Source: Escherichia phage alpha3
Length of the DNA stretch: 1,786 nucleotides
Strand: one strand, 5' to 3'
Sequence record: M25640.1
Shown in pieces: positions 1 through 1,786 of the stretch. The notes beneath the pieces are model-generated. The model was not told the origin of the DNA and searched no databases. It was given only the letters and a program-made list of their open reading frames with translations. Position 1 is the stretch's first letter; each line of letters starts with the position of its first letter. The position numbers and the translations under genes were made by a program.

Positions 1-72
1 GGTCGTGTGATTGGTACCATCGCTACGACTCAGGTTATTCATGAATACCAAGTCCTTCAGCCGCTTAAATAA
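1..72 (+). CDS. G: 3' end of major spike protein G (partial; start is upstream of the window)
   Basis: Frame 1 is open from nt 1 and reads GRVIGTIATTQVIHEYQVLQPLK, then TAA at 70-72. The ...QVI.E...LQPLK-stop ending matches the C-terminus of phiX174 G as I recall it (...NQVIKEIICLQPLK). The ORF lies directly upstream of H, as in the microvirus order F-G-H-A. Only 23 codons are visible. Confidence 0.75.
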   Translation, partial: GRVIGTIATTQVIHEYQVLQPLK

Positions 73-99
73 AAGGCTGCCGCACTCCCGGTTAGATGC

Positions 100-117
100 C
101 TGCCCAGTGTAGGGCAG
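100..117 (+). repeat. Inverted repeat / stem-loop: 6-bp stem CTGCCC (100-105) with GGGCAG (112-117), 6-nt loop AGTGTA
   Basis: Perfect Watson-Crick complementarity read directly from the sequence; all-GC-rich stem, no following U-tract. Confidence 0.6.
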
Positions 118-155
118 ACCGAGCCGTACGGAGATACCCGATAAACTAGGAACGT

Positions 156-176
156 GGAAGGCGTTAGCCGCCTTCC
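156..176 (+). repeat. Inverted repeat / stem-loop: 8-bp stem GGAAGGCG (156-163) with CGCCTTCC (169-176), 5-nt loop TTAGC
   Basis: Perfect 8-bp complementarity read directly from the sequence; followed by CTCCTG rather than a U-tract, so not a canonical intrinsic terminator. Confidence 0.6.
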
Positions 177-194
177 CTCCTGCTAAGCCCAAAA

Positions 195-199
195 AGGAG
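195..199 (+). promoter_or_regulatory. Shine-Dalgarno sequence (AGGAG) for gene H
   Basis: AGGAG at 195-199, 8 nt upstream of the H ATG at 208. Confidence 0.7.
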
Positions 200-207
200 T
201 TACAGCG

Positions 208-1200
208 ATGTTAGGTGCCGTTGTTGGTGGCATTGCCTCAGCCTTAGCTAGTGGTGCCGCTTCGAAATTATTTGGAGGCTCTCAGCGTGGAGTTTCTGTT
301 ATGCAGCAAGGTGCCGAGTCTGCCGGATTGACTAACGGCGGCGGCGCCATTTCTATGGATAATGACCAAGGTATTCAGTCTGCTATTCAAGGCTCGAATG
401 TTCCTCCTGCTGGTCAGCTTCCTGAGTCTCAGAACTCTGGTGTTATGGCTGATGCTGGTAACATGCTTCGTAATGCTGGAAAGTCTTTGCTTGACGGAAC
501 TATTCAGGCTGGTTCTGATAAAGTTAAGCAAGCACTTATTGATAAGTTGATTGGAGGTAATGATGCTAAAGACCGAGGAAAGGCAACCCGCGATTACTTG
601 GCTGCGGCCTTCCCTGAGCTCAACCCATGGGAACGTGCTGGAGCTGGTGCTTCCACTGCCGGGTTAGAATCTTCTGCTCAGAATCAGCAGAAAGAGATGC
701 TGAAGATGCAATTGGATAATCAGAAAGATATTGCAAAAATGCAGATGGATAACAATTTGCAGATTGCTGGTATTCAGTCTGCCACTTCTCGTCAAAATAC
801 GAAGGATTCTGTTTATGCCCAGAATGAGATGCTTCAGTATAATCAACGTGAGTCGCAGGCACGCGTTGCGTCTATCCTCGCCAACACTGACCTCACGACT
901 AAACAGGCTACCCATGAAATCATGAGGATGGCCCTTACCCGTGCTCAGGAGACTGGTCAGCATTTGACTAACTCTCAGATTATGGCTTTGGAGAAAAAGG
1001 TCTATGCAGAAATTGGAAAAATTCATCAAGATACTCAAAACTCTCGCTATGGTAGCTCTCAAGTTACTGCCGCTGCGAAAGATGTTACGAATATGATTAC
1101 CGATGCCGCTTCAGGTGCTTCTGATTGGGTTTCTCAGCAGTGGAATTCGTTCTTTAAGGATGGTAAGTCCAACGGTATTTCCCTTAATACCAGAAAATAA
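208..1200 (+). CDS. H: Minor spike / DNA pilot protein H (complete, 330 aa)
   Basis: ATG at 208 with SD 8 nt upstream, TAA at 1198-1200. The translation is collinear with phiX174 H as I recall it: Gly-rich hydrophobic N-terminus MxGAxxGGIASALAxGAxSKLFGG, then AIQGSNVP, TRDYLAAAFPELNxWERAGA, KMQLDNQK, IAGIQSATSRQNTKDxVYAQNEML, ARVASI, QNxRYGSS and C-terminal FxKDGKxxGIxxNxxRK. Similar length (330 vs 328 aa). Follows G as expected. Confidence 0.95.
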   Translation: MLGAVVGGIASALASGAASKLFGGSQRGVSVMQQGAESAGLTNGGGAISMDNDQGIQSAIQGSNVPPAGQLPESQNSGVMADAGNMLRNAGKSLLDGTIQAGSDKVKQALIDKLIGGNDAKDRGKATRDYLAAAFPELNPWERAGAGASTAGLESSAQNQQKEMLKMQLDNQKDIAKMQMDNNLQIAGIQSATSRQNTKDSVYAQNEMLQYNQRESQARVASILANTDLTTKQATHEIMRMALTRAQETGQHLTNSQIMALEKKVYAEIGKIHQDTQNSRYGSSQVTAAAKDVTNMITDAASGASDWVSQQWNSFFKDGKSNGISLNTRK

Positions 1201-1203
1201 TTG

Positions 1204-1209
1204 TTGACA
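1204..1209 (+). promoter_or_regulatory. -35-like hexamer TTGACA just downstream of the H stop (positional counterpart of the phiX174 promoter upstream of gene A)
   Basis: Perfect TTGACA at 1204-1209, 4 nt after the H stop, where phiX174 also has TTGACA after H. No convincing -10 hexamer at 16-18 nt spacing (AGACTC/GACTCT region), so promoter activity is uncertain. Confidence 0.4.
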
Positions 1210-1226
1210 TTCCCTAAACCCTTATG

Positions 1227-1265
1227 AGACTCTTGCTTCAACGAAACGAAGTAGGAGTCTTTTTT
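1227..1265 (+). terminator. Rho-independent-terminator-like hairpin with U-tract; Shine-Dalgarno AGGAG (1253-1257) embedded in the 3' arm
   Basis: 13-bp stem (1227-1239 pairs with 1248-1260; 11 Watson-Crick plus 2 G-U pairs), 8-nt loop AACGAAAC, followed by TTTTT (1261-1265) and then ATG at 1266. Same layout as the phiX174 hairpin GCCTCCAAATCTTGGAGGCTTTTTTATG before gene A, as I recall it. Confidence 0.5.
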
Positions 1266-1409
1266 ATGAAACCAGCTCATCGCCTCTATCATCCTGTGCT
1301 TGGTTCTTGGTTGTTTAAGTGCCCCGTTTATGTTCGTTATGAGTCCCTTCATCACGGTCGCCTCATTAAGGTTCGTGCTGTTCGTGACCTTTCCCGCGTC
1401 AGCAGTTGA
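1266..1409 (+). CDS. Hypothetical small basic protein (47 aa), candidate leader ORF
   Basis: ATG at 1266 sits 8 nt after AGGAG (1253-1257) and directly after the U-tract, at the position equivalent to the phiX174 gene A start. It reads MKPAHRLYHPVLGSWLFKCPVYVRYESLHHGRLIKVRAVRDLSRVSS, then TGA at 1407-1409 (9 K/R, 4 H, 2 D/E). I recognise no homolog; expression is unproven. Confidence 0.35.
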   Translation: MKPAHRLYHPVLGSWLFKCPVYVRYESLHHGRLIKVRAVRDLSRVSS

Positions 1410-1633
1410 TTGCCAATCCTAAAAATTGCTTTGACGTTGTCATTGCTGAGATTGACGTTACTCACCTTTCTGTCACTTGGTATGATTTTGAAGCTGAAGA
1501 GTATGCTGAGTGTGATTCCGGCACTATGGAGCTTGTTGTTTCTCAGGTAAATTCTGGCGAGGTTATTCGCTCATCTGAAGACCTGTTTGTTGATGTTGAT
1601 GATATGGAATGGCCTTATGAAATTGCGGAGTAA
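1406..1633 (+). CDS. Hypothetical highly acidic protein (75 aa, TTG start)
   Basis: ORF from the six-frame track. The TTG start at 1406 overlaps the TGA stop of the preceding ORF (TTGA); no independent SD. 19 Asp/Glu versus 2 Lys/Arg. TAA at 1631-1633. An alternative internal ATG at 1526 has no SD. Coding status uncertain. Confidence 0.3.
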   Translation: MIANPKNCFDVVIAEIDVTHLSVTWYDFEAEEYAECDSGTMELVVSQVNSGEVIRSSEDLFVDVDDMEWPYEIAE

Positions 1634-1636
1634 GTC

Positions 1637-1726
1637 ATGGAAACTGTTATCGGAAAATTTATTGCTCTGGCTATTGTTGCTCTTATGCTGTATGGAATTG
1701 CCTGTTTGATTCGGAGGTTTCCGTGA
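1637..1726 (+). CDS. Hypothetical 29-aa hydrophobic single-helix membrane peptide
   Basis: ATG at 1637 is preceded by GGAG (1627-1630) at 6-nt spacing. It reads METVIGKFIALAIVALMLYGIACLIRRFP, then TGA at 1724-1726. An 18-residue uninterrupted hydrophobic core is flanked by K7 and R26-R27. Too short for the supplied ORF track; found by manual reading. Confidence 0.4.
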   Translation: METVIGKFIALAIVALMLYGIACLIRRFP

Positions 1727-1786
1727 AATATTTTAGTTTGGTAGATGAACATTATGCTTACTGCCCTGATACAAGGATTTTGCACA
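1723..1786 (+). CDS. 5' end of next gene (partial; GTG start), possibly replication initiation protein A
   Basis: GTG at 1723 is preceded by a strong SD, GGAGG (1713-1717), at 5-nt spacing and overlaps the upstream stop (GTGA). It is open to the window end: (M)KYFSLVDEHYAYCPDTRILH. There is weak resemblance to the phiX174 A N-terminus MVRSYYPSECHADYFDFERIE (shared H, Y and RI at equivalent spacing), and gene A is expected after H. Only 21 codons are visible. Confidence 0.4.
   Translation, partial: MKYFSLVDEHYAYCPDTRILH

Follow-up and report, generated by a model that had tools for sequence, protein, structure and literature searches.

Directly behind gene H, phage alpha3 carries a -35-like TTGACA, a terminator-like hairpin, a Shine-Dalgarno (SD) sequence, a run of T residues and an ATG, in the arrangement that in phiX174 introduces gene A. 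In the deposited alpha3 sequence this ATG (position 1266) opens an ORF of only 47 codons. A first-pass annotation of the sequence proposed either that the start of gene A had been displaced by inserted material or that the short ORF encodes a leader peptide controlling downstream expression. We conclude with high confidence that a conserved gene of 122 codons (ORF1) does begin at ATG 1266, as the first of three ORFs of 122, 29 and 58 amino acids in the H-A region of Alphatrevirus genomes, and that the apparent length of 47 codons results from a C missing in record X60322.

The window, by which we mean the whole 1,786-nt stretch analyzed here, is 100% identical to alpha3 X60322 and to the RefSeq entry NC_001330, and spans both ends of the circular record. 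The alpha3 records hold 758 nt without annotation between H and gene A, and the window ends inside this stretch; its features are collected in Table 1. The spacer between genes G and H (window 73-207) has 83% mean column identity to the F-G intergenic region of G4, which is annotated with a primer RNA and the origin of complementary-strand synthesis. From this resemblance, the primase-type minus-strand origin of alpha3 presumably resides in the G-H spacer, an intergenic slot other than the one used in G4.

Table 1. Features of the alpha3 window, in window coordinates; "record" refers to the numbering of the circular X60322/NC_001330 sequence.
Feature	Position	Strand	Remarks
End of gene G, G-H spacer, gene H	1-1200		record 4888-6087
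First 586 nt of the 758-nt H-A stretch	1201-1786		record 1-586
Gene H (minor spike/pilot protein)	208-1200	+	stop TAA 1198-1200; 100% identical to record 5095-6087, annotated H
TTGACA, -35-like hexamer	1204-1209	+	directly 3' of the H stop; position of the phiX174/G4 pA -35
Terminator-like hairpin, T_H equivalent	1226-1261	+	14 bp, loop of 8; from terminator scan; kept across the clade; SD within 3' arm
Shine-Dalgarno AGGAG	1253-1257	+	in hairpin 3' arm; 8 nt before ATG 1266; AGGAGTC invariant in the clade alignment
T-run (T6)	1260-1265	+	between hairpin and start codon; length differs among relatives
47-codon ORF as deposited	1266-1409	+	ORF1 codons 1-43, then 4 codons out of frame and TGA 1407-1409
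C-run, frameshift site	1393-1395	+	CCC here; CCCC in resequenced alpha3; CTCC or CCCC in relatives
Codons 45-122 of the real gene (RQQLIANPKNC...EWPYEIAE)	1397-1633	+	stop TAA 1631-1633; in the frame that results from the missing base
ORF2, 29-aa hydrophobic peptide METVIGKFIALAIVALMLYGIACLIRRFP	1637-1726	+	3 nt after ORF1 stop; SD GGAG inside the last ORF1 codons
ORF3 (58 aa), 5' part	1723-1786	+	GTG start overlaps ORF2 stop (GTGA); SD GGAGG 1713-1717

All components of the control element that the first-pass annotation had listed are present, and the collinearity with the start of gene A in phiX174 that it recognized is real. In phiX174 the TAA of gene H is followed by TTGACA, the hairpin CCTCCAAATCTTGGAGG, CTTTTTT and the ATG of gene A, and G4 follows the same plan, so that the start context of ORF1, with its -35 hexamer after the H stop, T_H-type hairpin containing the SD, T-run and ATG, is that of gene A in these two phages. 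Over the SD, T-run and ATG, alpha3 (GGAGTCTTTTTTATG) and phiX174 (GGAGGCTTTTTTATG) are identical at 14 of 15 positions. The TTGAC of the -35 is invariant in the 15 clade records and aligns with TTGAC(A/T) of phiX174 and G4; the SD is AGGAG in alpha3, and both of the other phages have GGAGG at the corresponding place. The alpha3 hairpin folds as RNA with a free energy of -20.1 kcal/mol (z = -4.84; none of 200 shuffled sequences was as good), and is the sole terminator-like site called within the window.

The phiX174 genome has been described as containing an overlapping pA-T_H element and leaky terminators (bioRxiv 10.1101/2020.03.05.979765). Of the parts of such an element, the H-proximal alpha3 copy has the -35 right after the H stop and the terminator-type hairpin with a T-run overlapping the SD, but its -10 is much weaker than those of phiX174 and G4. 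The candidates after TTGACA 1204 are GAGACT at 16 nt and TGa-GACTCT at 18 nt; neither matches the consensus, no recognizable -10 hexamer is found 16-18 nt downstream, and a promoter scan of the window called no promoter on the + strand, including at 1204, where the -10 is poor. The annotated transcription start of phiX174 (3962) lies inside the phiX174 hairpin, and pA transcripts consequently lack its 5' arm, leaving the SD unpaired. The phages also differ in what follows the element, as the ATG begins gene A in phiX174 and G4 and an unrelated 122-aa gene in alpha3. An in-frame ATG at 1224, which would give a form of 61 or 136 aa, was considered as an alternative start and rejected: in several relatives indels within the T-run shift it to another frame, and the conserved start is therefore ATG 1266.

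As deposited, the ORF from ATG 1266 encodes a 47-residue product with nine lysine and arginine residues, four histidines and a pI of 10.6. The first-pass description of a basic 47-codon ORF ending at 1407 is accordingly accurate for the record, but the length itself is an artefact. The window contains 10 ORFs of at least 47 aa over its six frames, which makes a length of 47-61 aa uninformative when taken alone. At the frameshift site the sequence CCTTTCCCGCG of the window corresponds to CCTTTCCCCGCG in the resequenced alpha3 genome, DQ085810.2, and the addition of one C to the C-run extends the ORF to 122 codons. The window as deposited splits the gene into pieces of 47 and 75 aa, and a continuous ORF of 120-154 codons appears in it only when the C is restored; DQ085810.2 contains this ORF unaided. 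The composition of the window changes frame at the same place: the fraction of T at third codon positions, which is typically raised in this phage, is 0.45 in gene H and 0.56 in ORF1 before the indel, and after it 0.54 in the shifted frame versus 0.22 in the continued frame of ATG 1266. The first-pass annotation had allowed for a sequencing frameshift in the event that protein A proved to begin at this ATG; a frameshift does exist, but it lengthens the ORF to 122 codons without joining it to gene A. Programmed frameshifting at CTTTCCCG was also considered and rejected, as the 0-frame codons CTT TCC CGC lack the X XXY YYZ pattern of a slippery heptamer and resequenced alpha3 simply has the extra base.

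Comparison of the two alpha3 records bears on the origin of the missing base. X60322 and DQ085810.2 differ at six sites in 6087 nt, comprising two losses of a single C in C-runs, three exchanges between G and C, and one C/T difference; three of the six fall inside the 369-nt ORF1. Lilleven, NC3 and St-1 agree with DQ085810.2 at five of the six sites. The second omission of a C, relative to DQ085810.2 and the relatives, is at record 4378, outside the window, in a C-run of the unannotated F-G spacer. At window positions 1535 and 1538 the window has G (GTTGTT, encoding ELVVSQ) where resequenced alpha3 and all close relatives have C (CTTCTT, ELLLSQ), and on this comparison the two G residues are probably further misreads of the 1992 record. 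The missing C is most probably a gel-reading error of 1992, in a stretch that was never checked for reading frame; such errors would have gone uncaught because the authors of the time took the stretch as non-coding and had no frame to check it against.

The alternative that best survives these data is that the isolate sequenced in 1992 carried a real 1-nt deletion, which inactivated a dispensable gene and left that stock making the 47-aa basic fragment. A true strain difference between the two alpha3 sources is suggested by the C/T site at record 2449, where the relatives side with the old record; St-1, which has likewise been propagated for a long time in the laboratory, has an independent 1-nt gap in ORF1, so that loss of the gene may be tolerated in laboratory culture, and phiX174 and G4 live without it. 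The other differences between the records, however, have the character of classic misreads, namely compressions in C-runs and G/C swaps, with half of all six sites concentrated in the unannotated 369 nt. Moreover, the 78 codons downstream of the gap are undamaged and equal to those of resequenced alpha3 save at the two G/C sites. We consider a real deletion unlikely, and a reading error in an intact gene the better account.

The 122-codon gene is a constant feature of the clade. A 122-aa ORF begins at the homologous ATG in 13 of the 15 alpha3-clade records, the exceptions being the 1992 alpha3 record and St-1, and tblastn against the phage collection recovered ORF1 in 26 of 26 clade records, in two pieces only in the two old alpha3 and two St-1 records; no record from outside Alphatrevirus matched at E <= 1. 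The Lilleven genome has the equivalent protein annotated as hypothetical (QBZ71502.1; MK629527, CDS 5397-5765), at the same locus, behind the same hairpin, SD and ATG, with 122 aa and 96% identity to the window product once the C is restored. Unannotated equivalents of 122 aa occupy the same locus in alpha3 DQ085810.2, NC35, NC3, WA13, WA45, ID21, ID32, ID62, NC28, NC29 and phiK, with identities of 72-97% on the same basis. The window differs from Lilleven and all these equivalents in being split by the missing C and in reading ELVVSQ for ELLLSQ. St-1 (NC_012868; L006) has its own 1-nt gap at about 225, at another site (AAAAATTG-TTTGACG), which divides ORF1 into pieces of 108 and 68 aa; either this record too is in error, or a laboratory stock has lost a gene that it could dispense with.

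Metagenomic data extend this picture. A search of 5.8 billion proteins returned 19 ORF1 clusters, with lengths of 120-154 aa and one of 211 aa, and none of 47 aa; the longest contig was 2.5-6.3 kb in nearly all of them. A profile search with the ORF1 alignment against 1.84 billion representative proteins found only three representatives, all alpha3-like. A divergent homologue recovered by this profile search (P0020; 129 aa, 35% identity), on the metagenomic contig L018, has the same locus order of H, ORF1, a 29-aa ORF, a 58-aa ORF and A. The position of ORF1 between the H stop and the 29- and 58-aa ORFs, with its ATG behind a T_H-like hairpin, is shared by all 15 clade records and by contigs L018, L019 and L020. 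Contig L019 (6193 nt) encodes an ORF1 of 154 aa at 3001-3465, with an in-frame acidic insertion of 32 codons after codon 3 (LTSSEIAV... placed between MKP and SAHRL); the hairpin ahead of its ATG has a larger loop. The motifs AHR..HP..G.WLFK.PVY and RDL..PR..L.ANPKNC and the acidic C-terminus DVDDM.WLYE, seen in the family alignments and the divergent P0020, are present in the window, on either side of the frameshift.

The pattern of substitution is that of a protein-coding gene read in a single frame. Pairwise Nei-Gojobori dN/dS is 0.19 in the frame of ORF1, as against 1.24 and 1.78 for the two alternative frames, and variable sites are distributed over the three codon positions as 44/34/99. 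The same frame is constrained before and after the frameshift site, with dN/dS values of 0.08 over codons 1-43 and 0.26 over codons 45-122, where the other frames are at about 1.1. AlphaFold2 with the family alignment gives one confident predicted fold over all 122 residues (mean pLDDT 90.5, pTM 0.81). The protein has an N-terminal half that is basic, beta-rich and nearly invariant and a C-terminal half that is acidic and more variable. No known structural or sequence relative of this predicted fold was found, and a sequence profile search of the PDB with ORF1 returned nothing. Searches with ORF1, ORF2 and ORF3 against Pfam, PHROGs, NCBIfam and PADLOC gave nothing significant, the best matches being chance-level ones for the 29-aa hydrophobic peptide. 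ORF1 has no Pfam match to PF05840 (Phage_GPA), the family of the microvirus replication initiator A, and, in agreement with the first-pass annotation, no resemblance to the N-terminus of phiX174 A, to which BLASTP gave no alignment at E <= 100. By tblastn, only chance-level matches were obtained against the rest of the alpha3 genome and against G4. The three-ORF cassette shows no paralogy to either of these or to a phiX174 fragment, and a search of 5,426 complete E. coli genomes found nothing that matched it.

ORF1 is followed closely by two further ORFs. ORF2 occurs in every relative, even on the divergent contig L018, and its product is probably a single-pass membrane peptide; dN/dS over so short an ORF is not decisive. 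ORF3 extends past the window to record 699 (524-700 in L002) and is very strongly conserved, with a dN/dS of 0.086. Its homologues occur only on alpha3-like contigs of about 6 kb, it matches no family, and its TGA stop codon lies within the TTGACA of a second promoter, proximal to gene A. Both ORFs lie in other frames, and each ends at a stop codon of its own, in every one of the 15 records as well as on independent metagenomic contigs. Lilleven has ORF1, ORF2 and ORF3 all annotated as hypothetical proteins.

Gene A is annotated from record 759, outside the window at what would be position 1959, and its first residues (MATE...) are conserved behind an SD of their own. The proposal that its start had been displaced by inserted material is borne out by the three conserved ORFs that intervene, but the distance from ATG 1266 is 693 nt and not the approximately 460 nt suggested, a figure that leads to GTG 1723, the start of ORF3. 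A second copy of the control element precedes gene A at record 697-761, likewise outside the window, and consists of TTGACA-18-TATATT (11 of 12 consensus positions), a hairpin GCCCTC..GAGGGC, T5 and CGC ATG. With this second copy of promoter, hairpin, SD and ATG, the H-A region can be described as a cassette of about 690 nt flanked by two pA/T_H-like modules. By analogy with phiX174, transcripts from the alpha3 promoter next to gene A would be expected to begin immediately beyond the 5' arm of the hairpin there. The gene-A-proximal copy resembles the H-proximal one even in the bases ahead of the -35 (TAATTcTTGACA against TAATTgTTGACA), a likeness which suggests that the origin of the cassette involved a duplication of the control region.

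Gene A stands behind its own module of TTGACA, -10 and hairpin in 14 of the 15 records compared. In NC35 a 29-nt deletion (695-730 in L004) removes the -10 and the 5' arm of the hairpin from the gene-A-proximal copy, and promoter and terminator scans of the NC35 H-A region called none anywhere. Gene A of this phage may be transcribed through ORF1-3, and the deletion suggests that gene A can be served by transcription that enters on the side of H.

These features bear on the second proposal of the first-pass annotation, that the short ORF encodes a leader peptide, or acts as an upstream ORF, and regulates gene A through its own translation. An SD and ATG set in an attenuator-like context of hairpin and T-run would suit such a role, as would the apparent dependence of NC35 gene A on transcription through the region. 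Against this, the ORF of the relatives has 122 codons, is under amino-acid-level purifying selection over its whole length and is predicted to fold as a single globular protein, and some 550 nt and two further ORFs lie between the apparent 47-codon stop and gene A, which for the most part has its own promoter, hairpin and SD, with the 11/12 promoter called in alpha3. The short ORF of conserved length, or with conserved stall codons, adjoining the gene it regulates that typifies a leader peptide or attenuator is not what we find here, and we regard this explanation as very improbable.

More improbable still is that what is conserved here is not a protein but a DNA or RNA element acting in cis, for instance a signal for replication or packaging. 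The original annotators left the region as intergenic, and microvirus intergenic regions do hold origins, as the match of the G-H spacer to the complementary-strand origin of G4 illustrates. Selection at the nucleotide level would, however, account poorly for a three-base periodicity of substitution with low dN/dS in one frame only, for an ORF still open at 35% amino-acid identity, or for a confident AlphaFold model; the Rfam scan of the window gave only noise (E = 0.26 to 0.61). It is scarcely credible that protein A in fact begins at ATG 1266 and that further frameshift errors hide a long N-terminal extension: the ATG does hold the gene A start position of phiX174 and G4, and the record does contain a frameshift error, but the corrected ORF ends at its TAA in every genome, ORF2 and ORF3 follow in other frames with stops of their own, the MATE... 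start is conserved with its own SD, and ORF1 has no similarity to A proteins.

Returning to ORF1 as a 122-codon gene, its position suggests how it may be expressed. The H-proximal module combines a perfect -35 with a poor -10 that the scan does not call, and ORF1-3 may for this reason use a weak promoter, read-through, or both. In the first case the ORF1 mRNA would start inside the hairpin, as at phiX174 pA, with the SD unpaired; alternatively or jointly, the leaky terminator would be read through to yield mRNA for ORF1-3. ORF2 and ORF3 have SDs of their own and stops and starts that abut or overlap, an organization that suggests coupled translation.

Since phiX174 and G4 complete their cycles without an ORF1 homologue, the ORF1 protein is most likely a non-core accessory protein, and we infer that it most likely acts on the host. 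Beyond this we suggest, tentatively and at somewhat less than an even chance, that ORF1 founds a structurally new accessory family confined to Alphatrevirus, whose basic, beta-rich N-terminal and acidic C-terminal halves would address a target in the host, in roles such as host takeover, counter-defence or superinfection exclusion, and that the cassette was captured by insertion into, and duplication of, an ancestral pA-T_H/gene-A start element.

The existence of the gene is already on record. Some GenBank records annotate ORFs of the cassette as hypothetical, and an 'extra region' between H and A with putative genes, common to St-1, alpha3 and WA13 and absent from phiX174, is attributed to Rokyta et al. 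2006 (J Bacteriol 188:1134) in Chantranupong and Heineman 2012 (PMC3324380). A 2026 paper on an alpha3-like genome still gives only the 11 classical genes (PMC13029530), and broad and phrase searches of the literature returned nothing relevant to the H-A region. Of note are the correction of a reference record and a clade-specific cassette of three genes, the first of which encodes a protein with a confident predicted fold without a match.

Taken together, these results indicate that in NC_001330, the reference for alpha3, a real gene is marred by a frameshift error and by what are probably two wrong bases, and that three conserved ORFs lack annotation. ORF surveys, the training of genome models and phage design that start from this record inherit an ORF of 47 aa and an 'intergenic' region of 758 nt, both of them false. 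For the biology of the group, the genomes of alpha3-like phages hold some 690 nt of additional coding sequence that is absent from phiX174 and G4, with purifying selection acting on the proteins. How this cassette was accommodated within the control region of gene A is shown by the duplicated promoter-hairpin-SD module. If the proposed origin is correct, capture of the cassette would be a rare gain of genes in a microvirus genome limited by capsid size. The proteins of the cassette are accessible targets for asking which accessory functions a minimal ssDNA phage can afford.
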